Origin: Patescibacteria group bacterium UBA924
Lineage (GTDB): Bacteria; Patescibacteriota; Microgenomatia; UBA1400; PJMF01
Assembly (NCBI GenBank): GCA_002293725.1
Contig: DBDU01000026.1
Location: forward strand, 6,313 to 70,312
Length of the DNA stretch: 64,000 nt
Direction: 5' to 3'
In this document: positions 38,803-64,000 of the stretch, piece by piece
Layout: the number at the start of each line of letters is the position of its first letter
How positions within the stretch are numbered: position 1 is the first letter of the stretch
The notes under the pieces: model-generated
The model's input: the letters and a program-made list of their open reading frames with translations, nothing else
Told to the model about the DNA's origin: nothing
The model's database searches: none
Program-made: the position numbers and the translations under genes

Positions 38803-38857
38803 GCTGGAGATAGCGGAATAAACCGTGAGTGTGCTAAAGTAAAAAAGAGAAGAATCC

Positions 38858-38886: not shown

Positions 38887-38931
38887 TTAAACAGTATCTC
38901 AACGATACTAAACAGTAACAAAAGGAGTCAC

Positions 38932-39333: not shown

Positions 39334-39357
39334 AGCATTTTTAGTAAATGAAAACAG

Positions 39358-39382
39358 AACCCCCGCTAATGCGGGGGTTTTT
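39358..39382 (+). terminator. Rho-independent terminator after paralog 6
   Basis: A 9-bp GC-rich stem (AACCCCCGC / GCGGGGGTT) with loop TAAT is followed by TTTTT. Confidence 0.7.
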
Positions 39383-39384
39383 GA

Positions 39385-39390
39385 TATAAT
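39385..39390 (+). promoter_or_regulatory. -10 box (TATAAT) 10 bp upstream of the paralog 7 ATG; short or leaderless transcript
   Basis: The element tataat is followed by ttgactgtc and then the ATG at 39400. Confidence 0.35.
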
Positions 39391-39399
39391 TTGACTGTC

Positions 39400-44619: not shown

Positions 44620-44648
44620 TTGCGGGATCTCTTGAGGTGGGATACAAT
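44620..44648 (+). promoter_or_regulatory. Candidate promoter (-35 TTGCGG, 17-bp spacer, -10 TACAAT) for the VirB6-like gene
   Basis: The -10 element ends 7 bp before the ATG at 44656, consistent with a leaderless or very short-leader transcript. Confidence 0.3.
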
Positions 44649-44655
44649 AGCGGTT

Positions 44656-46644: not shown

Positions 46645-49600
46645 TTAATGTCCGTTCTTCTTATCACCTTCAGCTACTTCACCAATTTTCTTCCAGTCAT
46701 GCTCATAGTAGTGAGTATCAACCACAAACTGCTCAACCGTACCTACTAAACCACGGTCTCTCATCATCTGTTCTACAGCGTCTCTAGCATATGCACGAAC
46801 AATTTTTTTACTAAGGTTCTTTTGCTCTTCCATGTCTCCACCAAAGTCTGGTCCTAAGAAAGACTCCAAAGCCATATCACACATTTCTAAAAACAACTCT
46901 CGGTGAGCAAAGTCCATCGGCTTAGCTCCAGAGATCGTCTCAATCTCATGACGAACTGTCTCTAACATTCCCGTCATGTAGTGGACAGAGTGACCACCTT
47001 CTACAGACTTGTACCGATACTGATCAAGGTATAAACCAACCGCAATTAACCATGCCTCTACCACGAATTGGCTTTGACCAGCAGCATGCAACGGCTTTCC
47101 TTCATCATCTACACTGCCAATTAAGTCAGCGGCAATTCTGACACCCTCAGGGACAGCTTTGGTTTTTGCCGCGCGTAAATCTTTAGAGTCGGGATATCTG
47201 TTCCGAAGTTCTCGGATAGTCCCTTCAACCTCTCCATGACCATGAGGATCTTCAACCATTCCTCTAAATGGCTTGCGGAAAACATTCAGCAAAAGCTCGC
47301 TGACTGGAAGCACATCTTCGCCAGGTAAACGAGGCCCCGCACCAGTGCTGATTTTGTCAGAATAGTAACGAGCACCGGCTTGCGTAATCTTAGAGAATCC
47401 CATTCCGCCTTCTTTTTTCGACAGGTCGTCAATGGTCATGTGGGTAATAACCACTTTTTTGCGGAAAACTTCATCAATATGCACGGCTTCTGCAGCGAGA
47501 CTCTCTGGAGAAGATCTCAATGTACGGAACTTTCTCCATAAATCTTTAATATCTTCAGGAAAGTCACTTTTAACCGTTCGTTTATGGATGTTGTTCTTTG
47601 CTAAGTGAGTTTCGTGAATCGGTGGAAAGACTGCTTTGGTGTCTCTGGTAGAAAGAAACTCCATCCAAACTTTTCCATCACTCGCTGCTCCTGCCCAAAA
47701 CCGACCGTGCTGTGCAGTCATCGTGTCGAAACGGACATACTGTGGATCTACCATGGAGTCGACAATCTGTCTGTCTGACAAAGCAATCATATGTGCCCTA
47801 TCAGGATTTCTTTTCTTGATTGCCTGTCTGCGTGCATGTTTAAGATAGTTACGTGGCACCCGAATAAACATCATCTCTGAGATGTCTTTCGGATTCGCTG
47901 GATCATACATTGCAGCATGTTCCGGTTTAACCCGGATAATTTTGTAACGACTATTCACGGCCATGTTTTGAGCGATTTTCTTAAGCTCATCCAAAACCAT
48001 CTCGTCAATCTCACTCTTCTTCGCTTTCGGATGTGCTGTTTCTAAGCTACTACGAATTAGCGGCTGTTCCGCTTCTAAAGTATCTACAAGATCCGTCAAA
48101 CGATCAATTTCCTCTTGATCGATATTTGTTTTCTTAGACTTTAACGATTCCAAAGCCGCTATTCTTCTCTTGATATCCTGAATCTGTTCCAATGAACTTA
48201 AGTCTTCGTACTCACCTACAGCAAACTGACGGGACTCAATGATGAACTTCGTAATCTGGGTAATTCTTCTTTCCAACGTCTGTCTCTTTGGATCCCCCAC
48301 TTTGAGCGCTTTGGCTTTGGTTCGCATGTCATTACGCTCTTCAATAACCTGTTCAAGCGTATAACTCTCATATTTATCGGGAGAGAGCTCCACGTACATA
48401 TGAATAAAGTCACTTCGTGTAGGCCAGATACGACTGACTTGATCTAAACCAGTGTCTCTCCACTCATAATCCGTATTCATTCTGGTATGTGCTACTTTGG
48501 TAGCATACTCACCAGTGTTAATGTACCAAGCCAACTTAGAGTCAAGACCGTCATCGTCATAATCAAAGTTACGCAAAGTAAATACACTGGTCCAGGTAGC
48601 GATCTTCCAAGCTAAATCGACCACACTTCCATCTCTAAACTCACCAGGTTTCTTAGGATCTTTTACACGAATTCCTGCCGGAATCTCCTCAATCAGCTTG
48701 TCACGAACTTGTTGAATTTCAGTAGATTTATCACGACGAGAAAGGAAAACAAGGTCAGGGATTTCCCGTTCTATGCCACCAATAAAGTGATTGACGTAAT
48801 CTGGAATACGCCAGTACGTTTCTCGGCCGCCATCCTTTTCAAAAAGTTTGTGCAGCTCTGTTTCCACTTCACCATCAGCACCTTTTCGATGTACCTGTTT
48901 GTAAAATGGACCCAAGTCCCAGTTATAGTAACCTCCAGTATCCTGTTTTTCATCACCAACCAACTTCACAATCGCCATTGGGTTATCGCCGCTCTGCCAG
49001 TTCCCAGTTTCACGCATGGCATTGACGTAGTTATGCATTGCTTCAATATGCAAAATCCGGTACTTCCACATCGTTACCCATTCAAGGATTGTTTCGTGAG
49101 AAGCCCCCGACATAATCTCTGCCCATGGAAAATCTGTAATTAACGTGTCCACTGTTTTATTTACATCCATCTCACGACTGGGAATGTTGAACTTTAGTTG
49201 CCATAGTTTGAGATCATCCGCCGGTAGTGCAAAAACTTGTTGACCAGAAGCAACGGAAGCTGAAAAGACTTCGCTTCCCAGATAGTTAGTAAGACCCAAT
49301 ATAAACTCCGTCATGAATGCATTAAGTCCGTGTTTTTTGACGTATTCCGACATCTCCAAAAAGTCGGGCATGTATGGATTTCGCTCTTTCAGTTTGGTAT
49401 AGATTAGCCGTGTAACCTCTTGTTTCGCTAACTCACTCTCGTCTTTCGCAGACTCAGCTTTGGAACGACCTGCCTTTTGATCTTGTCGTTCAATTAACTC
49501 TTGGACGCGTGCAATTTCTGTCTCAAGATACTTTATCTTGGCTGATTGAAGGTTCTTATTAAACTGAGAGTCAGGATCGGAAACTGGGTACTCAACTACC

Positions 49601-50757
49601 GAAACAATATTCTGTTGGTTACGTAAAAAGGCAAGCACTCTTCTTAAAGCAGGTGTTTCGACGGCATCATCAATAGGCGAGTTGGTATCTAATTTTTTCT
49701 TAAAGTCTTGAAGGAACTGCTTGTAAGGACGCTCAGGCTCTCCATCAATGTATATCGTGTATTCTTGAATGACATCTGCCTGCCAACGTGTAAACTGCGG
49801 AATGAGTTCTGGGTAAGAAACAAGATCAATGATGAACAGTATTTCTCGAACTCGATCTTCCTTTAAGTTGTAGTCATCTAGTGGCTTATTTTCATTGATT
49901 GATGGAGCTATTTTCTTTTCTTTTACTAACCTGGCTTTTTCTTCTAATAATGCTCTCAATGACTCTTGAAGTTTCAGTGCTCCTTCCGGAACAGCAGCAT
50001 CCCCAGGTTCATTTCCCTCATACGACTGGGTTAGCTTTAAGAGGTTTGCAAGAGCGTCTGGATTATCAACTATCCACTTCGTCATTCGATCAATAAGAGT
50101 AGGATCTGCACCCTTGCCCAGCTTATCGATAATAAGAGATCCTAACTCGTCAGTCTCATCTTTAGTTAAAGTTGCTACATCCTGATAGAGAGATTTATTG
50201 TCTATAACGCCCGGGTACTCAGTAGCCAGATCAGCTAGCTTTTGCTGCGCTTGCTCTATAAAGAAGCCGGTAGGATGAATCTTAAGTCCTCTGAACTCTT
50301 CCCGATGTGCAGCAAAGTCTGTAGAGCCCCCTTCTTTTTCTTGATACAAAGTAGCTTGAAGTTCCAAAAATTGAGAGAAAAAGGTAGAAATCTGCAAAGC
50401 ATCTAGCACAATCGCATCGCTGACAACGTTATACTCTACTCTGAGCTTCTGGACTCTTTCCAAAGACTTGTATAAACGACGAGTAACGTATCGGCGGAAA
50501 GTTACAACTTCGTCATCTGTTGCTTTATATTTATTTTTCAACAGACGAACAATTACATCATGGGAATCATCGGTGAGTACGTCAATATATCCATATAACA
50601 ACTTAAAATCTGCTTCTGTGATTTTTTCATTTTTGGCCACCAAACGATTCTCGAGGTCTTCAACAATAAGATTGATTTCCTCAAGTGTATTCTTTGTTCT
50701 TTGATACTCGGCCGAAGCAACACGCTGAACTTCAGCTTCCTTTAAGAATTCTGCCAT
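46645..50757 (-). CDS. Giant (1370 aa) soluble protein of unknown function
   Basis: The ORF is uninterrupted. I found no TM helix, Walker motif or recognisable catalytic motif. It contains coiled-coil-rich stretches. Confidence 0.6.
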   Translation of the reverse strand: MAEFLKEAEVQRVASAEYQRTKNTLEEINLIVEDLENRLVAKNEKITEADFKLLYGYIDVLTDDSHDVIVRLLKNKYKATDDEVVTFRRYVTRRLYKSLERVQKLRVEYNVVSDAIVLDALQISTFFSQFLELQATLYQEKEGGSTDFAAHREEFRGLKIHPTGFFIEQAQQKLADLATEYPGVIDNKSLYQDVATLTKDETDELGSLIIDKLGKGADPTLIDRMTKWIVDNPDALANLLKLTQSYEGNEPGDAAVPEGALKLQESLRALLEEKARLVKEKKIAPSINENKPLDDYNLKEDRVREILFIIDLVSYPELIPQFTRWQADVIQEYTIYIDGEPERPYKQFLQDFKKKLDTNSPIDDAVETPALRRVLAFLRNQQNIVSVVEYPVSDPDSQFNKNLQSAKIKYLETEIARVQELIERQDQKAGRSKAESAKDESELAKQEVTRLIYTKLKERNPYMPDFLEMSEYVKKHGLNAFMTEFILGLTNYLGSEVFSASVASGQQVFALPADDLKLWQLKFNIPSREMDVNKTVDTLITDFPWAEIMSGASHETILEWVTMWKYRILHIEAMHNYVNAMRETGNWQSGDNPMAIVKLVGDEKQDTGGYYNWDLGPFYKQVHRKGADGEVETELHKLFEKDGGRETYWRIPDYVNHFIGGIEREIPDLVFLSRRDKSTEIQQVRDKLIEEIPAGIRVKDPKKPGEFRDGSVVDLAWKIATWTSVFTLRNFDYDDDGLDSKLAWYINTGEYATKVAHTRMNTDYEWRDTGLDQVSRIWPTRSDFIHMYVELSPDKYESYTLEQVIEERNDMRTKAKALKVGDPKRQTLERRITQITKFIIESRQFAVGEYEDLSSLEQIQDIKRRIAALESLKSKKTNIDQEEIDRLTDLVDTLEAEQPLIRSSLETAHPKAKKSEIDEMVLDELKKIAQNMAVNSRYKIIRVKPEHAAMYDPANPKDISEMMFIRVPRNYLKHARRQAIKKRNPDRAHMIALSDRQIVDSMVDPQYVRFDTMTAQHGRFWAGAASDGKVWMEFLSTRDTKAVFPPIHETHLAKNNIHKRTVKSDFPEDIKDLWRKFRTLRSSPESLAAEAVHIDEVFRKKVVITHMTIDDLSKKEGGMGFSKITQAGARYYSDKISTGAGPRLPGEDVLPVSELLLNVFRKPFRGMVEDPHGHGEVEGTIRELRNRYPDSKDLRAAKTKAVPEGVRIAADLIGSVDDEGKPLHAAGQSQFVVEAWLIAVGLYLDQYRYKSVEGGHSVHYMTGMLETVRHEIETISGAKPMDFAHRELFLEMCDMALESFLGPDFGGDMEEQKNLSKKIVRAYARDAVEQMMRDRGLVGTVEQFVVDTHYYEHDWKKIGEVAEGDKKNGH

Positions 50758-50775: not shown

Positions 50776-52356
50776 TTAAGCTGCAATTTTTTGCAACAGT
50801 GCCGTAATGTCTTCTTTTTTCTGAGCTGGAGGAGGTTTTATCCCGTCATAAAGTTTTGGCACTTCTGATGCAACTAAGAGCAGAGCCATCTGTTCAACAG
50901 CCGTTGCATCATTAGGGTTGAAACCTTCTACTTCATCTTTACTTGCAGTTCCACTTAATAAGTTATTAAACCGATTAAATGCAACCCCTAATACTCTCGC
51001 ACGAGACTGTTCCGCTGTTGCAAGCATGTTCATCTTGGCATCTTCGTCAAGAGATTCTGGAACGAGTGTTCTAGCTTCTTCATATACTGCTTTCAGTTTT
51101 TTCTTTACGTCACCCTCACCAGATTCTGGTGCCTTTGGCGGTTCGGGCGCTGATTCTACTTTTTCGTCACTCGCTTCATCAGTAGCTACGTCCTCTGGGC
51201 TGACACCTGGCTCTGGTGCAGGTTCCGTAGCTGGTTCTTCTGTCCCAATCACCTCCGTTAAAGCAAAGATACGAGCTTTGTTTTTCTCCACCCAAATCTT
51301 GAGGTTAGCGAGGGCCTTCTTTCTACCATCTTCATCTTCTTCGTTAAATTCTTTCTCAAGATCTTGAGCTTTGCGTTTGAATGCAGTCTCATTAGCCATA
51401 GCTTGGGCAGTCCCTGTTAACTCAAAAGAAATGACTCCCAAACCTTTGACATAAGCCAAAAATGGAATCAGAGCATCTTCTCGTTCACGAGCCAAGTCTG
51501 TATCTGTAGGAGGAGTAGACTCATCAATCATCTCCACGAGCTCATTAAAAGAGATCTTCAAGGCGTCTTTTACGGGTCTGTGAATGCTAGATCGCATCTT
51601 TCTTTCTAATCGTTGAGTGCGGCTCATGTTAATCATTTGCAAGCCCTTCTCAACCCATCGGCCTACCTTCTCTTTAATACCTGTTTCAGCATCGTCTTCT
51701 TGGTCACTATCTTCCTCAGGAGTAGGTGTGGTATCGACTGGAGAAACTGGTTCTACGTTTGCTGGGGGTACATCTGGAGTCTCAGGTGTGCCAGCAGCTG
51801 GACGAGCCTTCACCAGATCAAGCACATCTCGCATTTTTTGAATTAAGGTCAGCATGTGCTCTGGGGTAACCGTACCCGCTTCCTCAACAGAAACAACTAA
51901 CTCATCCAGGTCACCTTCGATACTATCGGCTAAGTTTTCCAGAGGGAGAGTCCCTTCCGCACGTTGGTAAACAACATCTAACTCACCCATTAATTCTTGC
52001 AAGCGAATAGCGAGGGGTTTGTCTTCAAATGAAGCTGTCGTGTAATCGATGTCCGGATCTGATTCATCTAAATTATCAAGTAAAAGTACTAAGTTTGCTC
52101 TCTCCTCTTTAATGACTTTCCCTTTTGCGCTACGAGCTTCTTTTTGTAAGGCTCCCACTTTTCGACGTAACTCCACAAGCTCGTCACGAACTTCTAATAC
52201 TCTCTCTTTAGAAGGTTTACGGGATTTCTTTAACTCTGCAACTGTGCCACGGGCTGCATTAACTTCATCTTCTAAAGGTTTGTATGAATCTACAATTTCT
52301 TGGGTGCTTCGAAGTGTTTCGCTTCCTGTTTCAGGACTTAAAGGGGCGGTTGTCAT
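50776..52356 (-). CDS. Acidic coiled-coil protein (526 aa), unknown function
   Basis: The product is rich in Glu, Asp and Lys with a Pro/Glu linker. It sits 18 bp upstream of the giant protein gene. Confidence 0.5.
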   Translation of the reverse strand: MTTAPLSPETGSETLRSTQEIVDSYKPLEDEVNAARGTVAELKKSRKPSKERVLEVRDELVELRRKVGALQKEARSAKGKVIKEERANLVLLLDNLDESDPDIDYTTASFEDKPLAIRLQELMGELDVVYQRAEGTLPLENLADSIEGDLDELVVSVEEAGTVTPEHMLTLIQKMRDVLDLVKARPAAGTPETPDVPPANVEPVSPVDTTPTPEEDSDQEDDAETGIKEKVGRWVEKGLQMINMSRTQRLERKMRSSIHRPVKDALKISFNELVEMIDESTPPTDTDLAREREDALIPFLAYVKGLGVISFELTGTAQAMANETAFKRKAQDLEKEFNEEDEDGRKKALANLKIWVEKNKARIFALTEVIGTEEPATEPAPEPGVSPEDVATDEASDEKVESAPEPPKAPESGEGDVKKKLKAVYEEARTLVPESLDEDAKMNMLATAEQSRARVLGVAFNRFNNLLSGTASKDEVEGFNPNDATAVEQMALLLVASEVPKLYDGIKPPPAQKKEDITALLQKIAA

Positions 52357-52502: not shown

Positions 52503-54023
52503 ATGAATGAGAATGAGTACGAGCGACCACCAGAAGAAACCCCTGCTCCTGAACCAGTTGAAGCTCCCGCGGATATTCCTTCTGTAAACCCACCTACCCC
52601 AGAGACAACTCCTCCTGTTGCCACACCACCTGTAGAAGCTGGTGATAGCCCCATATCAAGGCTCACTACTCCCGAAGACGCCTCTGTCGATATTCCCATT
52701 GAGGGAAGCGCTGAAGAAAATGCCGAGGGCCAACCAGACACTCCAGAAGGAGAAGAAGCTGCTACTCCTCAACCAGAAAAAAGCTTATCGGAAAAGGAAA
52801 AAGAGTTGGCCGAGAATAAAGCGCGCGAAAAAGTCTACTTTTTATTGAAAACGCGCTTTGAGATGAGCGATGAAGATATTCAAAAAGAGCTAGGGAATTT
52901 GAGCTTGGAAGAGCTGTTTGATTTTTACACCGACCTCTATCCCGATTTTGTGAATGATCTTAATACTTTAGAAGAGGCCATTCACACCGTCGTTTTGCAA
53001 GAAGCTACTGCCCATGCGGAAGCCCAGGCAGCTGAAAAAGAACAAGATGATACTAGAGAAGGCGACGATGCTGATGAAGAAGTTCCTGTTGAGGAATCAG
53101 CTCCCGAAGCCATCTCCCAAGAGGGCGAAGATGACGCTACTGAAGCCAAAGATGCCGTCACAGAAGAAAGCGAGACTCCTGAACAAAAGAGCATGCGTCA
53201 GGCAAAAGAGCTCGTTCAACGACAAGCGGCCTGGGATATCTATCGTAAGAATCACCTAGAGACATTTATCAAAGAAAACTTAGTAGACGAAACCAAGTAC
53301 CCACCCGATAAGTTCCCTAATGGACCTCAGTACGAAGATCTCGATGATGAGGATAAGGCTAAAGTTGAGGCTGCATTTAAGGAGTTCTGGACTCAAGACT
53401 ACCTCCCTGAAAATGCAGATACCGAGTTTGCCGATCAAGATCAAGACTCTTTACGCCAAGCACTTAAGAAACTAGGGAAAGAAATTTGGGTCAAAGGCGC
53501 ATCGACGACCGATGCCTCAACGTTGCTGAGAACCTTGTTCCTGCAAGGTGCATATCACTCGGGTGGTCACTCCAGCGAAGCATTCGCTCAGGATGAAAAT
53601 GACCGCGGTACAGCTATTGACGTTGCTCGCTTCCGAGAGATGTGCGGTTGGAAAGATGGTGAAGGGAGTGAAGATAACAAGAAAAAGTGGATGCAGCTCT
53701 GTGCCATCATCTATAACCAACTGCAGAAGGCAGATAATAATGAAGGTGAAGTTGTTGCAGTAAGCGAGTGGACAGATGGCGAAGCACTTGAACCAAACGA
53801 GATGAAAGAGCACATGGAAGAGCTCTATGAAGCTTGTGTAACCTCAGGAAAAGAAAAAGTGAATCGCGCGTTAGTAGAAGCTTTCGATACAACTAAGAAC
53901 GGTGGAATTGCCCTCACTAAACCAGGTGTTCTGGGTGGAGAAGTTCATGCCTCACAAGAGCTGATCGTTCACTTCCAGATGATGGCCAATCACAGCGACT
54001 ATCTACAGAACTTCTTTTCATAA
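52503..54023 (+). CDS. Acidic protein (506 aa), unknown function
   Basis: A Pro/Thr/Glu-rich N-terminus is followed by an acidic helical region. It is transcribed divergently from the 50776..52356 gene. Confidence 0.5.
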   Translation: MNENEYERPPEETPAPEPVEAPADIPSVNPPTPETTPPVATPPVEAGDSPISRLTTPEDASVDIPIEGSAEENAEGQPDTPEGEEAATPQPEKSLSEKEKELAENKAREKVYFLLKTRFEMSDEDIQKELGNLSLEELFDFYTDLYPDFVNDLNTLEEAIHTVVLQEATAHAEAQAAEKEQDDTREGDDADEEVPVEESAPEAISQEGEDDATEAKDAVTEESETPEQKSMRQAKELVQRQAAWDIYRKNHLETFIKENLVDETKYPPDKFPNGPQYEDLDDEDKAKVEAAFKEFWTQDYLPENADTEFADQDQDSLRQALKKLGKEIWVKGASTTDASTLLRTLFLQGAYHSGGHSSEAFAQDENDRGTAIDVARFREMCGWKDGEGSEDNKKKWMQLCAIIYNQLQKADNNEGEVVAVSEWTDGEALEPNEMKEHMEELYEACVTSGKEKVNRALVEAFDTTKNGGIALTKPGVLGGEVHASQELIVHFQMMANHSDYLQNFFS

Positions 54024-54236: not shown

Positions 54237-56075
54237 ATGTCTAAGGAGCAACTTGCTACTTCGCGATGGGACTGGAGTGAGTTGAGCTTTGGTCTGTTGG
54301 GAATGGTGGAACATAGCCGCGAGCGCCTACATAAAGTGCGTTCAAACCTTGAAGGTAGACGCGTAGTAGAGTCGGCTCACAAAAATTGGGACAATACCAA
54401 CTACTGTCGTAGCTTGAGCCAGGACGCGCCACATCAATATACCTACCAACAGCTGTTAGACGTTTTCCCAGCTAACTTCCGCGCTTTCACCGACGAGTAC
54501 TGCCTTGGCACACTAGTTCAAGAGTACCCCTTGGTTGTAGATAAACGCGGTATGTTGGGGCTTGATGATACCTATAAAGAACCATTGACCGATCAAGCTC
54601 CCCGCTTTCAAGAAAAACTATCTCGAACTGGAAAACGACAGCAACGTGGAACGATCGAAACATTTAATAGCCAGCGTTTGGACACCTGGCTTTCCACAGT
54701 TTGTCACAATGAGCAGTACCCATTCGGAACTAAACTTGTTTGGTGCAGCCCTCCTGGATTTAAGGTGGAGGGATATCACGGTACCAGCAGTAAACACCAC
54801 AGCTTCATTTGGGTGTATGAAAAAGAACTCGGCCCTGAGGGGCAACCTCGAATGAGTATGACTCAGTTCCGCTGTTGGCCAAACCTTTCACAGATGGAAA
54901 GAATTCAACACGCCTTGCGATTGAAGGCTCAACCAACCGACGTCTTAGAAGATGCTGTTGTTCCGACCAACAAACTTTCTCGAAGGAACAGTGTTATTGC
55001 CGAGTTTATTGAGCTTCCTGCTGCAATATCGATGGATGAGATCGAAGACACGATCTATGAAACAGAAGACAGTTGGCAGGTACAACGTGAGGACATGCCC
55101 CTTCTTTCAGAAGAGCGACTCTATGCTTTCGCACAGTATCGAGATGACGTTCTTCATCAGTTTTTAATTCCGACATACCAAGCGCTGCTCGCTCCCATGT
55201 CTCAACTACTGGAACCCTACTCTTCTCCTTTTTGGAGATCTCCCGAGTATATTCAGCTTATTCAACAACTGGACCTTGCCTTTGCTATCGCTTGGCAACA
55301 TTTAATGAAGTATGTTGAGGCTGTCGATCAACGGCCAACTGCTCAAGCGCTTCCGGCACTTCCACTGGCAGAGCTGCAGCGAGTGGATCACTTGCGAGAA
55401 ATCTTTGCATTGAAAGTGAAGTCAGATAATGGCGATGCAACTAAAGAGGATCGCAAACGATTTAATGATTTAGCTCCTCAACTTCTTTCTGTAGGTTCAA
55501 CGGCACTAAGTGTCGGCCAATGCGGCATTGGAACGTTGATTCCTGTTCAGCTTTTTAAAGGACTTGAAGGATTTGAGTCACTACAAGGCTTTAGCTCACT
55601 TTCAAAATTAAGCAAGTTCGATATTGCCAAGCTCTCTGCCGCAGAGCAACTTGCTTTTAAAAGCCAAGTCTTGAGCCAATATAAACCACTTACTTTAATT
55701 GGAAAATTTGGTCAAAAAGAAACATTTTGGGTACAAAATGAATATTATCAACAGTATCTGCAGGGTTCGCGTGTCACCAGCTCAGGAGAGTTTATCGGTC
55801 CTTGTGATATTCCACTCACAACTGGTGCAGACAACTTGGTACTCACCAATGCTAAGTATCAAGAACTTTTCCAGGCTGCCACACAGCCCGCACTGCCAGA
55901 CCTTGCTCAGCTCGATCTTGATGAAAAAAACTCACTTTCCCAAGCTCGAACTGAGGATGAACGTGCTCAAATTCGACAAGCTTTCTCAAGCAAACGAAGT
56001 CAGCTAAAGCACAGAGTTTCTGTTACGCAATTGATTAACAATGATCTCTTTCGGCCAACCTTTGCCAGGGTATAA
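54237..56075 (+). CDS. Hypothetical soluble protein (612 aa)
   Basis: The ORF is uninterrupted with no recognised motifs. It is the first gene after the riboswitch-like element. Confidence 0.5.
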   Translation: MSKEQLATSRWDWSELSFGLLGMVEHSRERLHKVRSNLEGRRVVESAHKNWDNTNYCRSLSQDAPHQYTYQQLLDVFPANFRAFTDEYCLGTLVQEYPLVVDKRGMLGLDDTYKEPLTDQAPRFQEKLSRTGKRQQRGTIETFNSQRLDTWLSTVCHNEQYPFGTKLVWCSPPGFKVEGYHGTSSKHHSFIWVYEKELGPEGQPRMSMTQFRCWPNLSQMERIQHALRLKAQPTDVLEDAVVPTNKLSRRNSVIAEFIELPAAISMDEIEDTIYETEDSWQVQREDMPLLSEERLYAFAQYRDDVLHQFLIPTYQALLAPMSQLLEPYSSPFWRSPEYIQLIQQLDLAFAIAWQHLMKYVEAVDQRPTAQALPALPLAELQRVDHLREIFALKVKSDNGDATKEDRKRFNDLAPQLLSVGSTALSVGQCGIGTLIPVQLFKGLEGFESLQGFSSLSKLSKFDIAKLSAAEQLAFKSQVLSQYKPLTLIGKFGQKETFWVQNEYYQQYLQGSRVTSSGEFIGPCDIPLTTGADNLVLTNAKYQELFQAATQPALPDLAQLDLDEKNSLSQARTEDERAQIRQAFSSKRSQLKHRVSVTQLINNDLFRPTFARV

Positions 56076-56083: not shown

Positions 56084-59000
56084 ATGGTTGATTCCCTTGC
56101 GCCAGCTGCAGAGCAGTTGAAGAAGTGCGCTGTTCATCACTCCATCTCTCAAAAAGACCTTGAACGACTTTTAGGTGTCATTATTGAGTCGCTTCAAGTT
56201 GGAGAGAGTGTTCGCGATCCAGAGACTCAACTTCCGGCTATCTATCCCGAGTGGTTAGACATCGAGTATGTTCGTGAACACTCACCCAACAACACAACTC
56301 CAGCTGGTTTTTACGTTAACCCCCGCTTGCAAAGGCGCAACGAAGAGACACCTGCTAATATTTTGGCGCTGAAAGATGTTTGTGACATTTTCAAAAGCAT
56401 CGCTGGTTTGGGAGAAGATGGTGACAACTTCATTGATGAAAAGATTCGGAGCGGTGAGTATGGTGGCTATGATCTTCTCGATGAAGAACAAGCTAACCTG
56501 ATCAACCGCATTAAAAATGATTACAATGGCGAACTACTCCCTCCGGACCTGAACTACCTTCGTGGTGACTCCCGTGTCTTACTATCTATCATCGCCACGC
56601 TCCATGCTGGATCGGCAGCAGAAGGTGAAGAAGTTGAAACGGTACTAACCCTTCCTGACGAGTTCAAAGCATTACTAGAGGGTGACCTTAACTTAGGCGT
56701 TTCTTGGGAGTGGGTAAAACCGCTCATTGAAGACGTTCTCCCCACGAAGCTCAATGCGCCTACAGTAGTTTTCCGTTACAACGATCAGAAACGTGCTGTC
56801 GCTGTCACCGAAATTCGTTTTTTCCTTAATAATTGGTTGCGAAAGTTCTACGAGGAGTACCAGCAACGGTTCCGTGAAGTTGGATTAGAGCTTCCTGAAA
56901 CAAAGCTGTTCGATGCAACGAACAAACTCGTTGCTTACTTTGACCTTCCTTATTGGGTTGAGCTGGATCAAGACATTATCACCTTTATCTCTAAAGAGCT
57001 CTCCCCACTGATTGAGCAGTATCTGAAACGTGGTCAGCCCACAGGGGTAGGCCTTGGATACCAAAAAGAAAATACCGAAGACGAAGAGAAAAAAGAGAAA
57101 CTTACTGAGAACATCAAGAATGTTGAAGAAGCTGACGATCTGCTTGAGCGTTTCTCACAAGCGGGAAAGTCTTACTCCCAAGAATCTGAACGTTTAACTA
57201 CCATTCTGTTACCTCAGTTGTTTAACATGCATGGCATCAGCCGTGATCTCACACAGCTGGGCCAGATTGATGATAACAGTCTCTTCCTGGTGGAGCGAGA
57301 GTTTAGACAAGAACTAGAAAACGTTCTACGTACTCTGACACCACAAGAGTTTGCGCTTCTTTCTGAACGTGGTGGTTCTCTGGAATTTCGTTTAATCGTT
57401 CTCAGAAAGTTGTATGGCAAGCTTTCTACAAACCCTCGTTTTATTGCTTCAATTCAAGAGTTCAAAGAAAACTATGTTTCTTACTTAGAAGAACGGGCTG
57501 CTGATGGTGACCAGGCCGCCCAACGAGAACTCAACAAACTAGAGCGTCAAATCAATCTTCCAGATCAGCGGTTTGATGAGGAGCTCGCTAAGAGCGAAAA
57601 AGTTCCGCCAGAAGAATGGACAAAGGAATTGAGTAAAGGTGGAAAAGGTGTTGGTGAAGTAACACTCCAAGAGTTTGCAGACCTTCACAAGATTTCCCAA
57701 GAGGATTTTCGTTTCCTCGCAACAAGACTTGTTGGAAATGATATCGACTTCCCAACACTCCTACGAAACTTAGACGTCATCATCGCTGAGCGGTGGTCGC
57801 CAGAGCAAATTCGTGGACTTGATCCCGGTGGTTCTACAGCTATCTTTGGTCTCGTTCTTCCAGATTATCTCACTCAAGATGGTCACCGTTTCCAACTCTT
57901 CCTCAACTTGTGTGCAGAGTACCTTTATGCCCGTCGCCAACATCTTGCTGACCACTATCAGCTGGATGCAATTAGTCGCCAGACTGGGAGCGGGTCAACA
58001 GACCTTGCCAGCCTCCAAGCCGCTCAAGAAATGGCTGAGCGGTACAAAGAGTATGGTGGTGGTGAAGCTCTGGTGGTCGGACGCGCCAGTGATAGTAAGC
58101 GTGTAGAAGAGTATCAACACGGAAACAAATTTGGCGTGGGAATTTCCGGAGTTCACAGTGAAACCAAAGAGCAACGAAAAGGACAGTTAGAAACTCATAA
58201 AAATACTACTCGTGCGCGTTTCCACGAGATGAGCATTGATGACAAACGGAAACAGCTTCAAAGTTTAGGTCTTTTAACTCCAGATAATGAACAGTTCATT
58301 GGCGATGACGAGCTGCGAATGGCTCAGCTTTTAGATACTGGACTTAATGAAGACTATGACGACGGTGTTCGTGGCTTGGATGACTTTTCGTACTACGAAG
58401 ACCAAGATAACGGATACGTCCAAGAGCAGCTTGGAACTGGACAACGAAGTATCCCTCAACGCTATGGAAGACCGGGTGGTCGCTCTCTGCTAAAAGGGGC
58501 TCTTAACTTAAAAAATCGATTCCAGAAAGCACAAAAAAGAATCAAGCAAGCCAAGAAGATTGCCAAAGCAGCCAAAAAACTGGCTGACAAAGGTTTAGAG
58601 AAAGTTGAAGCTGCTGCTGCATCGGTGGTGATGGGTCCGTTAGCACAGAATAAAACGCTTCGTCGTGGCATTCTTGGAGTATTAACAGCCCTCGTTCTTG
58701 ATACTCTAAACATGATCCAACAAGGCTTCTTTGCCAAAGTTGGAGCTTTTTTGGGTGGAGCTTTAGGTGGAATTGCTGGTGGAGCAGCCGGTGGTGTTTT
58801 TGTTATTCCTGGCGCAATTGTGGGCACCTTTGGTGGCGCTCGACTAGGTCATGGAATTGATCAGTGGTTTGCCAATACTTTTGGTGGTGCCCCCGAGGTT
58901 CGAGTCTCAAGCCCCGGTTTGAGCTTACCACTAGCTAAACAATCAGCCGATACTTTAACTGGTAGCGCCAAAGTTAGTGGCGGCGAGTTTGCCAAGACAA

Positions 59001-60151
59001 GTACTAATGCTTGGCCTGCAATCGCAACATCTGGTGGCTTCATGGCCACGGTAGGACTAGCTGGCGCAGTTATTACGGCTTCCATTCAACCCCCACCACT
59101 CGGAACTATTGGCGCTAGTGGACTGGAGTCTGAGTATGTGATCGTCGAAAAGGTCATTACTGACCCGGCTAACTTTACAGGAGATGTTGTTCCCTCATCT
59201 ATTACCTACACCATTAGTGTTGAAACAAAAGGTAACTACCAAATTGAGATCGTCAACTTCCAGGATCAAATTCAGTTAACCCCAAATACTGAGGTGCGTG
59301 GCTCAGAAGCACCCCCGGCGGCCCTTTCCTGTCCTGATTTTACATTTGCCAACCTTGCCACTCGGGTGATTGGTCCTAATGACGGAAAAGTTCAGATCGG
59401 AACGTGTACTATCACCCTTGATCAGAGTTACCACGATACTGGGATCTTTAATAAGTTCACCATGCAGTTTAAGGTTTCAGAAAATGGCCAAGCTGTCACC
59501 AACTCTAGCCCTGATTTCAACTGTGGTGAAACGAGCGATACTTTCTGTGCAATTTCTGGTGTTCAAGCCTGTCTAGGAGACTGTCCACTTCAACAAGAGG
59601 GCTGTTGGCCAACATCGGGAAGGTTAACTCAAGGTCCTGGAGGTGAGGGTTCTCATAGAAACACTGCTGCTATTGATATTGGTGCGAGGCTTGGTACGAA
59701 TGTCTATGCCACATTTGACGGCACTGCCTATGCCTTTGACACTTACGCCGCAGAGCCATCTAACCAAGGTTTGATTGATCGCACAGGAAAGAGTGGTGTC
59801 TACTCCAAGTCTTATGGAAAGCATGTTGTTCTCATTACCAATCAAGGCTTTGCACTTCTTTTTGCTCACTTAAATAGTCACTCTTCTACCCTGCGCTTAG
59901 GTACTCCAGTTCCAGTTACAGCAGGTACTATTCTTGGATATGTGGGAAATAGCGGAAGTACCACTGGCTTACAAATGGGAATGCACCTTCACTACGAGTA
60001 TCGCGTTCCAACGGGTAATAGTTGGCAAACGATACGATCTACCAATGGTGCTCAAATTATTGGGGTTCTTCCTAATGAAACCGGAGAAGCGTTTGTCTTT
60101 AATGGCACACGACAAGTTACAAGTTGTTATGATGCAAGTACTCCACAATAA
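56084..60151 (+). CDS. Giant (1355 aa) protein with a ~900-aa N-terminal soluble region, a glycine-zipper membrane segment and a C-terminal M23 (LytM-type) metallopeptidase domain
   Basis: The glycine-zipper segment reads FAKVGAFLGGALGGIAGGAAGGVFVIPGAIVGTFGGARLG. The M23 blocks are HRNTAAIDIGARLGTNVYATFDGTAYAF and GYVGNSGSTTGLQMGMHLHYEY. Confidence 0.7.
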   Translation: MVDSLAPAAEQLKKCAVHHSISQKDLERLLGVIIESLQVGESVRDPETQLPAIYPEWLDIEYVREHSPNNTTPAGFYVNPRLQRRNEETPANILALKDVCDIFKSIAGLGEDGDNFIDEKIRSGEYGGYDLLDEEQANLINRIKNDYNGELLPPDLNYLRGDSRVLLSIIATLHAGSAAEGEEVETVLTLPDEFKALLEGDLNLGVSWEWVKPLIEDVLPTKLNAPTVVFRYNDQKRAVAVTEIRFFLNNWLRKFYEEYQQRFREVGLELPETKLFDATNKLVAYFDLPYWVELDQDIITFISKELSPLIEQYLKRGQPTGVGLGYQKENTEDEEKKEKLTENIKNVEEADDLLERFSQAGKSYSQESERLTTILLPQLFNMHGISRDLTQLGQIDDNSLFLVEREFRQELENVLRTLTPQEFALLSERGGSLEFRLIVLRKLYGKLSTNPRFIASIQEFKENYVSYLEERAADGDQAAQRELNKLERQINLPDQRFDEELAKSEKVPPEEWTKELSKGGKGVGEVTLQEFADLHKISQEDFRFLATRLVGNDIDFPTLLRNLDVIIAERWSPEQIRGLDPGGSTAIFGLVLPDYLTQDGHRFQLFLNLCAEYLYARRQHLADHYQLDAISRQTGSGSTDLASLQAAQEMAERYKEYGGGEALVVGRASDSKRVEEYQHGNKFGVGISGVHSETKEQRKGQLETHKNTTRARFHEMSIDDKRKQLQSLGLLTPDNEQFIGDDELRMAQLLDTGLNEDYDDGVRGLDDFSYYEDQDNGYVQEQLGTGQRSIPQRYGRPGGRSLLKGALNLKNRFQKAQKRIKQAKKIAKAAKKLADKGLEKVEAAAASVVMGPLAQNKTLRRGILGVLTALVLDTLNMIQQGFFAKVGAFLGGALGGIAGGAAGGVFVIPGAIVGTFGGARLGHGIDQWFANTFGGAPEVRVSSPGLSLPLAKQSADTLTGSAKVSGGEFAKTSTNAWPAIATSGGFMATVGLAGAVITASIQPPPLGTIGASGLESEYVIVEKVITDPANFTGDVVPSSITYTISVETKGNYQIEIVNFQDQIQLTPNTEVRGSEAPPAALSCPDFTFANLATRVIGPNDGKVQIGTCTITLDQSYHDTGIFNKFTMQFKVSENGQAVTNSSPDFNCGETSDTFCAISGVQACLGDCPLQQEGCWPTSGRLTQGPGGEGSHRNTAAIDIGARLGTNVYATFDGTAYAFDTYAAEPSNQGLIDRTGKSGVYSKSYGKHVVLITNQGFALLFAHLNSHSSTLRLGTPVPVTAGTILGYVGNSGSTTGLQMGMHLHYEYRVPTGNSWQTIRSTNGAQIIGVLPNETGEAFVFNGTRQVTSCYDASTPQ

Positions 60152-60174: not shown

Positions 60175-61227
60175 ATGACAGAGCTGCCCTCAAATCAACC
60201 TCAGTATGAAGAGCTTCAAGATATTCGCTCTTCACTTGAACAACCAAGAAAGAAACCGTCTCGGTTGTGGATCGGACTTGGAATAGTTGCTGTAGTTTTA
60301 TTAGTTGTCGCTGCTATCATCCAAACCTTCACTCCACGAACTGTTCGTATTCCCGAAACTCCTTTTGTCGTTACAAACTCGAATAACACACTTCCAAACC
60401 TAACAGAGGTTTCTTACTCCGGACCAACGCCAGACTTCCCCACTCAGTTTTCTGTATACGCCGTCACTCAGACACTCCCCGAACAAGTTGTTGTCGGTGA
60501 CATGCTAGCGAAGTACGGACTAATGAAACCCAGAAACGATGCCAACTACTGGATCAATGGTCCAATTTCATTAATCCAAGACACCTCTCCGCCAATGTAC
60601 ACACTAGTGCTCAAGGATCCTGAGAATGAAGCACTTCCTATTATTAACATCGAACAAGCTCGCTTAGTTGCCTCTCGTTTCATGCAAGATACTTTCCCTG
60701 AGTTTCAGTTTAGTTTCATCCCAGGATCTGAAGGTTACTTTATTCTCAGCACAGAGCCAGGTGGGCCCGTTCCCCCTGAACAAGCTACTGGCGTAACTCT
60801 TTCTTTCACTCCTACATTAGAAACTGAGAACTTGCCAATCTTTTATGACAAATCCTTTGAACCACCATTTATCGTTACGGTAGATGGAAACAACACTATT
60901 CGGACACTTCGTTTCTCACCCCTTTTTAAACAATATACTAAAGTTGATACCCAAAACGTCCTTTCACTCGATGAATCATTAACCCAAATAGAGAGCGGCG
61001 TGGCTTCAATTATTAGTGCCACTATTGAAGACATGAATAGAGTTTCGATGTCCGAGCTCACTGCTGCTAACTTTAGCTCTGTGGGGTTAGAGTATCGCCA
61101 AGATCCCAACTTTGACGTGCTCTATCCTTTCTTCCACTTCTATGGAACAGGAACCAGTAGTAATGGGGTGACTGCCGAAATTGAAGTGATCACTCCAGCA
61201 GTAAAGTTAACTGGCTTTCAACGATAG
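60175..61227 (+). CDS. Bitopic membrane protein (350 aa); VirB8/TcpC-like by topology and position only
   Basis: A short cytoplasmic N-terminus is followed by one TM (LWIGLGIVAVVLLVVAAIIQTF) and a ~290-aa extracytoplasmic region. Confidence 0.45.
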   Translation: MTELPSNQPQYEELQDIRSSLEQPRKKPSRLWIGLGIVAVVLLVVAAIIQTFTPRTVRIPETPFVVTNSNNTLPNLTEVSYSGPTPDFPTQFSVYAVTQTLPEQVVVGDMLAKYGLMKPRNDANYWINGPISLIQDTSPPMYTLVLKDPENEALPIINIEQARLVASRFMQDTFPEFQFSFIPGSEGYFILSTEPGGPVPPEQATGVTLSFTPTLETENLPIFYDKSFEPPFIVTVDGNNTIRTLRFSPLFKQYTKVDTQNVLSLDESLTQIESGVASIISATIEDMNRVSMSELTAANFSSVGLEYRQDPNFDVLYPFFHFYGTGTSSNGVTAEIEVITPAVKLTGFQR

Positions 61228-61305
61228 CTATTTAGTAGTCAAAAAAATCCGATCTCAATCTAAAAAACAGAGTCGAAAACTGGTATAGTTCAGAACTACC
61301 TGTCT

Positions 61306-63276
61306 ATGAGAGAACACGCCTTACCGCAGGACGTTACTGGCTATAAATTCCACATCATCGGCAACATGACGCTAAAGCAATTTGGCGAGGTGGCAGCCGG
61401 TTGTATTGTGGGTTTTTTGTTATACCAAACCAACCTCTACCCGATGATCAAGATTCCCTTGATTATCTTAGCGGCTGGTTCAGGGGCACTTATTGCCTTT
61501 GTCCCAATTGAAGAGCGACCACTTGACCAATGGATCACTGCTTTTTTCCGCGCTTTGTATAGACCAACTCAGTACTACTGGAAAAGAATGGTTAAAATTC
61601 CTGAGCCCTTCTTATATGAACCTCGGGTTGAACTCAAAACAGTAGTTGCTGATGTTGACCTTACCCCAGCCCGTCGACAGCGAGTAAAGGACTACCTTCG
61701 TTCTATTGACGAGAAACAAGCACCCCTCGATCAACTTGAAACATATACTGAGCAGCGTCTTAATGAGGTCATGGGTGTCTTTGGTCAACCGCTTCAAACT
61801 CCCCAACTTGAGACAACCACCACACCAGAGCAAACAGAGAGTCCTGACACCACGGACATCTTGAATGCCAGTCCAGAAAACGTAAGCGATACCGTTGATA
61901 GTCTTTCCTTTACCGGTCGTGCAATGACAGAGGAACCCGTCATTGAACAAGGTCCCTCAGCTGAAGAAGTAGAAATGAGCAACAACGTCTTACGTTTATT
62001 CGATACTAACGAAACGGTTGCCCCAGAGCCAGAAGTTATCCCTCCCCCCCCTCAATTTGAACCACCAGCAGAAGTGCTTCCAGAACCAGCACCGGAAGTT
62101 GAGTTGCCCAAACTTGATAGCATTCCCGATAAGGTTGACGTTTCTATCCCAGAACAAGTTCCTGTTGAAGCTCCTGAGCCTACTCCACCGCTTGAACCAG
62201 TTCCCGAGCCAGAGCCCCCACCAGAACCGTTTCCAGAGCCAAAACCACTTCCGCAGCCTGAACCTGTAACCGAGCTGAAACCACCAAAACCAACCGTCTT
62301 GCCTGAAGTTAGTTTGGAACAAAAACAAGAGAACTCAGTTCAACTTCCTGAAAAAGCAGAAGCTGTTCCTGAAGATTTGACGAGTATTCCTGAAGTGGCT
62401 CTCGAACCAGACGAAACAAATACAGAAGAGCCGGCTCCTGAAACAGAGCTTCCTCAAATTTCTACCGTATTTGACGGTGGAGGTGGCTCAGCCTCTGCAG
62501 AAAGCTTGCCTTCCGTTTCTGTAGATACCTCAACGAAGTACAGCCTTAGCGCCCATGGTTCACCCAATGCAGACAGCAGCGAGGTCGCACAAATTGCCGA
62601 TGTCATTGCCAAAAATGCTGGAAACCCTGTCGGGACAGCGGGAAAGTTCCGTTCTCGTGGCAAGAACAGCGTTCAGTTTAAAACACGCCGCAACGACCCA
62701 TCATCAGAAGCAGTTCTGCCTCACATCTTAGATATGACTGGCTCTTCAGATTCAGTCATTATGAAGCCTAAAGAAACACCGCCGCCGCCAAAAGAAACTC
62801 CTCAATCAAAAGAAGTTCTTGTTCCTGAGCTCGAAGAAATTCGGGTTGAACGCACTGTGGAAGCTGCTGAGAATACCCAGGATAAATCCGATGACAAAAA
62901 AGAAATGTCGACCGCTGTTGACCCATCTCTCCTACAGATGCCTGAAAAGGAAAGTCCTGTGCAAGGCTCAGTAGCTGTCACCTTTAATGCAAACTTGCCA
63001 TTTCCAGAGAAACCTACCGTTGCTAACAAAGTGGTGGGCATGGTCATTGATCAAGCTGGAAACTCGCTCCCCAACACCATTGTGGAGATTCTCACACCTC
63101 AAGGGGTTCCGGCTCGCGCCGTCAAAACAAACCCACTCGGTCAGTTCTTCATCGCTACTCCGCTTAATCCCGGCGATTATCTGATCACCGCCGAAAAAGA
63201 AGGTCTTACCTTTGACACACATCAGTTGTCTGTCACAAATAAAATTATCGATCCTATTGAAATAAGAGCCAATTAG
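61306..63276 (+). CDS. PrgI/VirB3-like N-terminal membrane domain fused to a long Pro/Glu-rich linker and a C-terminal carboxypeptidase-regulatory-like (transthyretin-fold) domain
   Basis: The N-terminus (LPQDVTGYKFHIIGNMTLKQFGEVAAGCIVGFLLY...PLIILAAGSGALIAFVPIEERPLDQWITAFFRALYRPTQYYW) fits the PrgI-family pattern (v..dl..yk.k..g.lTlrQ...two TM...rPld.w...f). The C-terminus (VVGMVIDQAGNSLPNTIVEIL...GQFFIATPLNPGDYLITAEKEGLTF) resembles a CarbopepD_reg-like domain. Confidence 0.5.
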   Translation: MREHALPQDVTGYKFHIIGNMTLKQFGEVAAGCIVGFLLYQTNLYPMIKIPLIILAAGSGALIAFVPIEERPLDQWITAFFRALYRPTQYYWKRMVKIPEPFLYEPRVELKTVVADVDLTPARRQRVKDYLRSIDEKQAPLDQLETYTEQRLNEVMGVFGQPLQTPQLETTTTPEQTESPDTTDILNASPENVSDTVDSLSFTGRAMTEEPVIEQGPSAEEVEMSNNVLRLFDTNETVAPEPEVIPPPPQFEPPAEVLPEPAPEVELPKLDSIPDKVDVSIPEQVPVEAPEPTPPLEPVPEPEPPPEPFPEPKPLPQPEPVTELKPPKPTVLPEVSLEQKQENSVQLPEKAEAVPEDLTSIPEVALEPDETNTEEPAPETELPQISTVFDGGGGSASAESLPSVSVDTSTKYSLSAHGSPNADSSEVAQIADVIAKNAGNPVGTAGKFRSRGKNSVQFKTRRNDPSSEAVLPHILDMTGSSDSVIMKPKETPPPPKETPQSKEVLVPELEEIRVERTVEAAENTQDKSDDKKEMSTAVDPSLLQMPEKESPVQGSVAVTFNANLPFPEKPTVANKVVGMVIDQAGNSLPNTIVEILTPQGVPARAVKTNPLGQFFIATPLNPGDYLITAEKEGLTFDTHQLSVTNKIIDPIEIRAN

Positions 63277-63303: not shown

Positions 63304-64000
63304 ATGCCCTCTTCACAAGCAATTACTTCTACTACCCAAGAGTTTCTCGATATCCACGACATCACGGATAATTTATTGCTGCTCAAAAGTGGTGGGGCAG
63401 CTCTAATCGTCCAAGTTACGGCGATGAACTTCGGCTTATTGGCCGAAGAAGAGCAAGATGCCATCATTTATGGTTACGCTGGCTTGCTCAACTCACTCAA
63501 CTACTCTATTCAAATTGTAATTCGCTCCCAAACAAAAGACGTTACCAGCTATCTCAACTTGTTGCGCCAAAAGGAAGAAGAAGCACTCAGCTCTGCCCGC
63601 AAAGAACAAATCCGACAGTATCGTGAGTTTGTTGCTGATCTTGTTCAAGAACGGAATGTCTTGGATAAAAAGTTTTACGTAGTTATTCCAGCTAGTGGCA
63701 TTGAACTCGGCATTGTTCAAGCTCAAAGTATTTTGCCTGGTGTTAAGAACCCTGATATTTCGAGTTTTGATCGCAGCATTATTATCGAGCGCGCCAACAA
63801 CCTGCTTGAGCCCAAGCGGGATCACATCATGGCCCAGTTTGCTCGAATTGGTATGTTTTCTCGACAACTTATGACTCAGGAAATTATTCAGCTTTTCTAT
63901 ACTGCGTACAATCCAGAAGCTTCTGATGGTCAAAAAATGACCGATAGTCGTCAGTACACGTCCACTGCTGTAGAAGGCAACCTGGAAGAAAAGATCTTTG
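63304..64000 (+). CDS. VirB4/TrbE/PrgJ-like conjugal-transfer ATPase, N-terminal part; 3' end lies outside the window
   Basis: The frame is open to the window end. The N-terminal pattern (LLLLKSGGAALIVQVTAMNFGLLAEEEQDAIIYGYAGLLNSL...IQIVIRSQTKDVTSYLN...KKFYVVIPAS) resembles the VirB4 N-domain (kDGS...f.v.g.d....e.e.........ln.l...i..h.v.r......yl....). The gene follows a VirB3-like gene. Confidence 0.45.
   Translation, partial: MPSSQAITSTTQEFLDIHDITDNLLLLKSGGAALIVQVTAMNFGLLAEEEQDAIIYGYAGLLNSLNYSIQIVIRSQTKDVTSYLNLLRQKEEEALSSARKEQIRQYREFVADLVQERNVLDKKFYVVIPASGIELGIVQAQSILPGVKNPDISSFDRSIIIERANNLLEPKRDHIMAQFARIGMFSRQLMTQEIIQLFYTAYNPEASDGQKMTDSRQYTSTAVEGNLEEKIF

Follow-up and report, generated by a model that had tools for sequence, protein, structure and literature searches.

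A PrgI/VirB3 protein with a predicted carboxypeptidase-regulatory-like tail and a bitopic neighbour without a recognisable fold in a Patescibacteria type IV secretion locus

Which parts of a type IV secretion system (T4SS) are encoded by two neighbouring genes near the 3' end of a 64,000-nucleotide stretch of Patescibacteria group bacterium UBA924 (assembly GCA_002293725.1, contig DBDU01000026.1, positions 6,313 to 70,312 of the forward strand; hereafter, the window), and on which side of the membrane would they act? Patescibacteria T4SSs were described by Wang et al. 2023 (PMC10633639), in whose study a T4SS was for the first time found essential for the growth of the cell that carries it, and were surveyed by Quinonero-Coronel et al. 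2025 (PMC12102498). The survey almost never found VirB8 and suggests that 'a completely different protein' may do its job. Both plus-strand open reading frames (ORFs) were verified, at 60175–61227 (350 amino acids, aa) and 61306–63276 (656 aa). A sequence-only reading of the window had proposed that the first encodes a VirB8/TcpC-like bitopic protein, and the second a PrgI (VirB3-like) domain fused through a long linker to an extracellular transthyretin-like domain. The best overall explanation, which we consider reasonably probable, is a VirB3/PrgI protein with a cytoplasmic tethered module, next to a signal-anchored surface protein that is not NTF2-like, within a Patescibacteria T4SS. The parts of the 656-aa protein are as follows (TM, transmembrane).

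61306–63276, plus strand: PrgI/VirB3 fusion protein, 656 aa (ORF, Pfam, homologue alignment)
61324–61569, plus strand: PrgI/VirB3 domain, aa 7–88 (PF12666), with a two-TM hairpin at about aa 26–67
61591–61800, plus strand: conserved post-hairpin segment, aa 96–165 (KIPEPFLYE ... VDLxPARRQRVKEYLxSI ... VMxxF; 28/28 aligned homologues)
61801–62985, plus strand: Pro/Glu-rich variable linker, aa 166–560 (composition, alignment), with clade-specific conserved islands
62986–63273, plus strand: predicted CarboxypepD_reg-like (transthyretin-type) domain (PF13620 match at aa 576–639)

The PrgI assignment of the N-terminus was borne out by Pfam: PF12666 matched aa 7–88 (E 1.9e-8; profile positions 3–87 of 91) with 35.1 bits, over the 27-bit cut-off, and the motifs MTLKQF, EERPLDQW, and YYWKR, parts of which had been pointed out earlier, are close to invariant in an alignment of 28 homologues. 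The two expected TM helices form a 42-residue hydrophobic hairpin (family mean 15-aa hydropathy of 2.15 and 2.50). Conservation in the alignment is found at aa 1–105 (PrgI), at aa 115–165 (VDLxPARRQRVKEYLxSI...), and in the last ~95 aa, and the N-terminal tail together with the post-hairpin helix are the most conserved parts of the fusion. The low-complexity linker of ~350 aa that had been proposed is indeed rich in Pro and Glu (20% and 16% of residues 171–420, respectively, with PEPxP runs), but aa 96–165 are a conserved segment and not linker, and conserved islands lie inside the remainder. A tandem-repeat DNA origin of the linker was ruled out by a repeat scan, which found no repeats. At the C-terminus, PF13620 matched aa 576–639 of the window protein (E 2.9e-6) with 28.0 bits, under its 32.3-bit cut-off, and E <= 1e-3 is reached by each of the 28 aligned homologues (best E 1.3e-9), in agreement with the CarbopepD_reg-type domain of the sequence-only reading. 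With the family profile, carboxypeptidase M (1uwy) also came up as a weak match (E 0.011), in its C-terminal domain. From these matches, the C-terminal domain is predicted to be a small carboxypeptidase-regulatory-like beta-sandwich.

A search for the same fusion in homologues, as the sequence-only reading had advised, revealed that it is widespread. The first homologue search returned 98 Patescibacteria proteins of 363–694 aa, nearly all with both PF12666 and PF13620, under database names such as 'PrgI family protein' and 'carboxypeptidase-like regulatory domain-containing protein'; both families match in 28/28 of the aligned homologues. A word-index search with the N-terminal 170 aa gave 17 matches, mostly fragments. 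When one genome per species was scanned, seeded by the PrgI-fusion alignment, relatives were encoded in 340 species-level genomes, with titles mostly of Pacebacteria, Woesebacteria, and 'Patescibacteria group'. Among 85 loci, 14 proteins seemed to lack the C-terminal domain in a simple motif search; the domain is nevertheless there in the eight that were inspected by profile coverage or C-terminal sequence, and two others are cut by the end of the sequence. Judged by these profile matches, with both domains in every complete copy that was checked, the PrgI plus CarboxypepD_reg fusion is a fixed, standard architecture in at least 340 species-level genomes and is not peculiar to the window. Family members have a median length of 386 aa and the shortest complete copy has 284 aa. 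The linker is not a fixed spacer, because its length runs from ~8 aa in the 284-aa homologues to ~400 aa in the window's clade. In the searchable literature, no paper mentions PrgI together with a CarboxypepD_reg domain, and the 2025 survey (PMC12102498) is silent on a VirB3 fusion.

Comparison with known PrgI proteins shows what has been added. The expectation that PrgI proteins are stand-alone and ~100–120 aa long holds for PrgI of pCF10 (117 aa) but not here. The pCF10 protein shares with the fusion a two-TM hairpin, an amphipathic C-terminal helix, the same charge distribution, and a gene position just upstream of VirB4 ATPase genes, whereas the window protein adds ~560 residues (conserved segment, linker, and beta-sandwich). 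A parallel in gene order is SEML1_0010 of Ca. Southlakia epibionticum (Wang et al. 2023), an essential, extended 'PrgI family protein' of 300 aa with PF12666 at 5–90, whose gene is likewise followed by one for a ~293-aa protein and then by VirB4. Its extension, however, is annotated as helical, with no CarboxypepD_reg beta-sandwich. Because this Saccharimonadia protein is also extended, with a helical tail, an extended VirB3 is, as far as annotation and profiles tell, general in the phylum, and the beta-sandwich tail is lineage-specific.

Directly downstream, the window ends in a further gene of the same strand:

63304–64000, plus strand: TrsD/TraC-like gene, 5' part (232/295 codons), with ATG at 63304 and 99% identity to L001:13131–14018

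A near-identical genome (GCA_019454505.1; 98–99% identity, on a 659-kb contig) provided a view past the 3' edge of the window. There, the PrgI fusion is followed first by a TraC/TrsD-like protein of 295 aa and a VirB4 of 741 aa, and next by dnaA, dnaN, rpmH, rnpA, yidD, and yidC. The 232 residues of the window's final ORF are 99% identical to the start of this TrsD-like protein, homologues of which match PF26593 (TraC-like), and the VirB4 gene itself lies outside the window, beyond the TrsD-like gene. VirB4 of GCA_019454505.1 matched CagE_TrbE_VirB with 28.6 bits (cut-off 21), as well as P-loop_TraG, AAA_10, and DUF87. The arrangement is stable among homologous loci, with the TrsD-like gene immediately 3' of the PrgI fusion in 77/77 loci and virB4 <=4 kb downstream of the fusion in 66/69. 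The locus therefore has the hallmarks of Patescibacteria T4SSs (VirB4, TrsD, PrgI/VirB3, a VirB2-like pilin array, and a chromosomal position adjacent to dnaA). Because this gene content matches the published descriptions, in which loci contain VirB4, TrsD, PrgI/VirB3, and VirB2-like pilin arrays, often beside dnaA and usually with no relaxase nearby (PMC10633639, PMC12102498), this is a chromosomal, dnaA-adjacent T4SS of an already known kind, in an ultrasmall Patescibacteria (Microgenomates-type) bacterium, and both genes probably encode components of it. A mobile-element or plasmid origin was rejected, given that the locus adjoins dnaA on a chromosomal contig of 659 kb. The gene order that had been proposed (VirB8-like, VirB3-like, VirB4) stands as a T4SS module of Gram-positive type, but not as to VirB4 adjacency: the intervening TrsD-like gene distinguishes the window's locus from pCF10. 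At L001:13131–16247, VirB4 function is divided between two genes, a 295-aa TrsD/TraC-like gene and then a 741-aa VirB4 gene.

On the position of the tail, the evidence departs from the sequence-only reading, which had presumed an extracellular C-terminal domain. None of the 85 homologues has a further hydrophobic segment beyond the hairpin (top downstream 19-aa hydropathy of 1.48). Lysine plus arginine (K+R) in the same homologues averages 2.8 for the N-terminal tail, 1.3 for the hairpin, and 6.2 for the 35 aa that follow the second TM helix, and pCF10 PrgI, with both helices hydrophobic, has the same charge distribution. According to a 2025 FEMS review, VirB3 proteins span the membrane with two TM domains, keep both of their short termini in the cytoplasm, and bind VirB4 in a 1:1 ratio (PMC12857230). 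The C-terminus of VirB3 can be placed in the cytoplasm also because natural VirB3-VirB4 fusions, which exist in some Gram-negative conjugative plasmids (cited in PMC12102498), continue there into cytoplasmic polypeptide. The window protein is similar to these in that its VirB3 C-terminus runs on into further, presumably cytoplasmic polypeptide, and different in that, instead of an ATPase, a disordered tether with a small beta-sandwich at its end is attached. Because the hairpin has no third span, the charge pattern follows the positive-inside rule, and VirB3 provides a precedent, we predict that the tail and beta-sandwich of the PrgI fusion probably lie in the cytoplasm. The conserved N-terminal tail and post-hairpin helix would fit an interface, on the cytoplasmic side, with the TrsD-like protein, whose gene is invariably adjacent, and with VirB4.

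The strongest rival places the tail outside the cell: the Pro/Glu linker would span the cell wall and show the beta-sandwich on the surface in a TonB-like manner, making VirB3 an envelope-spanning adhesin or wall-binding subunit. An extracytoplasmic site is usual for CarboxypepD_reg (PF13620-type) domains and for TonB-like Pro/Glu linkers, so that a cytoplasmic one would be unusual, which weighs against our placement; the Pro and Glu content and PEPxP runs of the linker are as surface display would have them, and among solved structures the nearest sequence relative is a C-terminal domain from a secreted/membrane carboxypeptidase. By general analogy, TonB resembles the PrgI fusion in being anchored in the membrane and in carrying a small binding domain at its C-terminus on an extended linker rich in Pro and Glu. 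It differs in having a single TM helix with the N-terminus inside and the C-terminus outside (N-in/C-out) and a periplasmic linker; there is no sequence relationship between the two, and the hairpin of the fusion predicts the opposite side. Surface display also conflicts with an even number of TM helices, which returns the C-terminus to the side of the N-terminus (a third span occurs in no homologue), with the charge distribution, which points to N-in/C-in, and with the cytoplasmic termini of VirB3 and the natural VirB3-VirB4 fusions. In addition, the 284-aa homologues are nearly without linker, hence a wall-spanning length is not conserved. We regard surface display as an unlikely alternative.

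With the tail in the cytoplasm, the fusion could work as follows. The hairpin would sit in the membrane, and the N-terminal tail and post-hairpin helix would bind the VirB4/TrsD ATPase assembly, as the VirB3 precedent suggests. Three elements would lengthen the VirB3 C-terminus in this lineage, first a conserved basic segment, next a disordered linker whose length is unconstrained, and last a small beta-sandwich of transthyretin type, and the whole tail may form a tethered binding module at the cytoplasmic entrance of the channel. Such a module might either capture a partner or substrate or dock onto the ATPases; docking onto VirB4/TrsD is conjecture, which counts against the proposal. Should the tail be cytoplasmic, it may be relevant to substrate selection in systems with a distantly encoded or dispensable coupling protein. 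The idea that it substitutes for an absent coupling protein was weakened by a gene for a type IV coupling protein (T4CP)/VirD4-like ATPase of 778 aa at 12357–14693 (minus strand; TrwB_AAD_bind with 36 bits, cut-off 20.5, plus DUF87), which makes a replacement unnecessary. This T4CP-like gene lies ~46 kb from the PrgI gene, in agreement with the frequent remoteness of t4cp from virB4 reported for Patescibacteria.

The upstream ORF raises a different question, namely whether it supplies the VirB8 that most Patescibacteria seem to lack. Its features, and the gene directly upstream of it, are:

56084–60151, plus strand: M23 peptidase membrane protein, 1355 aa (PF01551, 42.1 bits), directly upstream of the 350-aa gene
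60175–61227, plus strand: bitopic N-in/C-out protein, 350 aa (ORF; conserved unnamed family)
60262–60330, plus strand: signal-anchor TM helix, aa 30–52 (hydropathy; DSSP helix in the model)
60346–61224, plus strand: predicted extracellular ectodomain, aa 58–350 (AlphaFold2 models; three alpha+beta modules)

Regarding size and bitopic topology, the likeness to TcpC held: TcpC of pCW3 has 359 aa, and the window protein has one TM helix (aa 30–52) and a gene upstream of a VirB3-like one. Only four relatives were found by word-index search, and a profile search covering 1.84 billion representative sequences found 492 relatives at E <= 1e-3 (113 at E <= 1e-30), nearly all of 305–368 aa and matched over their full length. 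Scans of the 350-aa protein with Pfam and NCBIfam gave no match, none of 142 aligned family members matched VirB8, TcpC, or another informative Pfam family, and the family profile found nothing significant among PDB sequences. Mean K+R values (2.37 before the TM helix, 0.82 after it) show an N-in/C-out bias, and the tail on the cytoplasmic side, with a median of 12.5 aa, is short and unconserved (conservation of 0.10).

An AlphaFold2 model built with the family alignment (predicted local distance difference test, pLDDT, of 93.4; predicted template modelling score of 0.86) shows the TM helix at aa 30–52 followed by three alpha+beta modules: two strands, one helix, and three strands at ~78–145; one helix and then six strands at 159–261; and one helix and then four long strands at 265–341, the last module being the most conserved. 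A second model of aa 150–350 (pLDDT 93.2) has the same elements, and no internal duplication is detectable among the three modules. Foldseek comparison of both models with 350,542 PDB chains gave nothing at E <= 1e-3 (best template modelling score of 0.22), with no VirB8-like entry among the top 50 matches of either, and a comparison with the viral structures of BFVD likewise gave no match. The top weak matches were hot-dog, UTRA, Bet v 1, and GFP-like structures, whose sole common element is a curved antiparallel sheet. As modelled, the ectodomain is a rigid, three-module alpha+beta structure without a recognisable fold and is not NTF2-like, an exclusion whose firmness is limited by its reliance on Foldseek as the only fold comparison. 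The NTF2-like fold that a VirB8-like assignment calls for, and on which the sequence-only reading had staked it, was thus not recovered. When the 350-aa family was aligned by hhalign with TcpC, PrgL, and PrgD, each as a single sequence, the probabilities were <1%, negatives that are uninformative, given that the same set-up failed its positive control and did not link the PrgI-fusion profile to pCF10 PrgI.

The position of the gene is better conserved than the protein that fills it. Three distant genomes share the order giant M23 protein, ~320–357-aa protein without family match, PrgI fusion, and TraC-like protein. Of the 82 loci that extend far enough upstream, 57 have a gene of the 350-aa family immediately ahead of the PrgI fusion on the same strand, and the slot in the others is filled by a shorter bitopic protein of 135–242 aa, with one exception (L017, where the 242-aa upstream ORF has no TM helix at the threshold used). 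The shorter proteins have only the TM and juxtamembrane region in common with the 350-aa family (hhalign probability of 95.8%, E 7.7e-9), and one of them carries a Big_5 Ig-like ectodomain. They are found at L039:6252–6956 and ~25 other loci (e.g., L008, L010, and L044), about a third of the related genomes. Since anchor and slot are conserved and the ectodomain is exchangeable, a surface-exposed accessory or scaffold fits better than a deeply conserved VirB8 core. In its position and topology, the 350-aa protein is an analogue of VirB8/TcpC and not a demonstrated homologue. In our favoured account, it would be an extracytoplasmic accessory or scaffold of the machine in the wall zone. Three observations weigh against this account. 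A different ectodomain (e.g., Big_5) occupies the slot in related genomes; the Saccharimonadia cluster has no such gene between the 998-aa protein and PrgI, with no bitopic ~350-aa gene listed between the SEML1_0010 gene and the upstream 998-aa gene; and a T4SS role is suggested by a single line of evidence, synteny. In view of the ectodomain swaps and the Saccharimonadia gap, the 350-aa protein may therefore be accessory rather than core.

The parallel with Gram-positive systems extends to TcpC (pCW3, 359 aa), PrgL and PrgD (pCF10), and TraM (pIP501), which are bitopic N-in/C-out proteins of similar size whose genes lie upstream of those for small membrane proteins and VirB4. In contrast to these, the window protein has no detected NTF2-like fold, a family of which 0/142 members match the VirB8 or TcpC Pfam models, and an ectodomain that is swapped between lineages. 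The cytoplasmic tail also differs: according to the R388 structure literature, the conserved cytoplasmic N-terminal tail of VirB8 contacts VirB4, whereas the tail here is short and unconserved.

Two rivals concern this protein. According to the first, it is a partner or regulator of the giant M23 peptidase, so that the two form a wall-remodelling pair sharing an operon and the 350-aa protein is not a T4SS subunit. Its gene invariably comes after the giant M23 gene, at a distance of 9–40 nt; three family members weakly match DUF4901 and the family profile weakly matches the PepSY-like 3due, and PepSY-type domains are known peptidase regulators. These matches, however, are far from significant (E 0.0016–0.07), and the M23 protein lies within the T4SS locus, where hydrolases such as PrgK are bona fide T4SS components, so the distinction is maybe semantic. 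We consider this reading unlikely. The M23 protein itself consists of ~880 aa without family match, a Gly-rich TM block, and an M23 peptidase at the C-terminus, and a giant M23 protein occupies the same place in the distant genomes L003–L005 and in 40/73 loci. It is likely a VirB1-type wall hydrolase candidate of the T4SS, and surveys with SLT/CHAP-based hidden Markov models may overlook an M23-type hydrolase of this kind. The second rival, a true VirB8/TcpC homologue that diverged past Foldseek and profile detection and serves as an oligomeric scaffold joining translocon to wall, draws on size, bitopic topology, a place upstream of VirB3-like and VirB4 genes as in tcpC-tcpD-tcpE-tcpF of pCW3, the status of VirB8 as a 'missing' component in most Patescibacteria (PMC12102498), and hhalign negatives that carry no information, but it is very improbable in the face of two pLDDT-93 models with no VirB8-like structure among their matches, modules of one helix plus sheet instead of a multi-helix NTF2 cone, 0/142 members matching the VirB8 or TcpC Pfam models, the short, unconserved cytoplasmic tail, and the unrelated ectodomains that take its place in sister genomes.

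Taken together, the two proteins invite a broader and quite tentative proposal, one that we would sooner doubt than accept: Microgenomates-type Patescibacteria rebuilt VirB3 as a fly-casting adaptor, and a protein with a new fold replaced VirB8 as the wall-zone scaffold. In the adaptor part, the beta-sandwich, working from the cytoplasm, may bring cargo or partners to the VirB4/TrsD entrance, or may be threaded or exposed outside by a topology unseen in other VirB3 proteins. If true, a rebuilt VirB3 or a VirB8 replacement would be a new architectural principle in a secretion system on which the epibiotic lifestyle depends. Neither a beta-sandwich VirB3 nor the 350-aa bitopic family was found described in the searchable literature. 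What is new is that a predicted carboxypeptidase-regulatory-like domain is tethered to the VirB3 of a whole lineage, probably at its cytoplasmic face, and that a conserved, confidently modelled bitopic family without a recognisable fold occupies the slot of Gram-positive VirB8-like proteins. The locus offers two widely conserved candidates for testing, the tethered beta-sandwich VirB3 (340 species-level genomes) and the bitopic family in the VirB8 slot.

The remainder of the T4SS locus contains pilin genes and several large proteins:

36718–39831, plus strand: seven tandem VirB2-like T4SS_pilin paralogues, 112–160 aa (PF18895 matches)
39877–43593; 46645–50757 (minus strand); 50776–52356 (minus strand); 52503–54023; 54237–56075: five large proteins inside the T4SS locus

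A single member of the pilin array (38932–39333) exceeds the Pfam cut-off for PF18895. A 507-aa protein at 29047–30570 (plus strand) matches T4SS_pilin at aa 421–485 with 27.7 bits (cut-off 26.6); this is a pilin fusion with ~420 aa without family match ahead of the pilin domain, located 6 kb from the array. A 573-aa protein at 44620–46341 (plus strand), with about six hydrophobic segments and a weak TrbC/VirB2 match (E 5e-4), is a possible candidate for a VirB6-like channel subunit, a component reported to be scarce in Microgenomatia. The five large proteins (506–1370 aa) had no match in a Pfam scan; some are very acidic, and a 1238-aa member has an N-terminal hydrophobic segment and may be secreted. 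No relaxase family turned up in those window ORFs that were scanned, which were part of the total, and a promoter and terminator scan between genes found nothing exceeding the shuffled background. Genes unrelated to the T4SS were also present in the window and encode an ATP-dependent DNA ligase (22052–23854, minus strand), a Fic-domain protein (23908–25008, minus strand), and tRNA-Ile (TAT) (7360–7436, plus strand).

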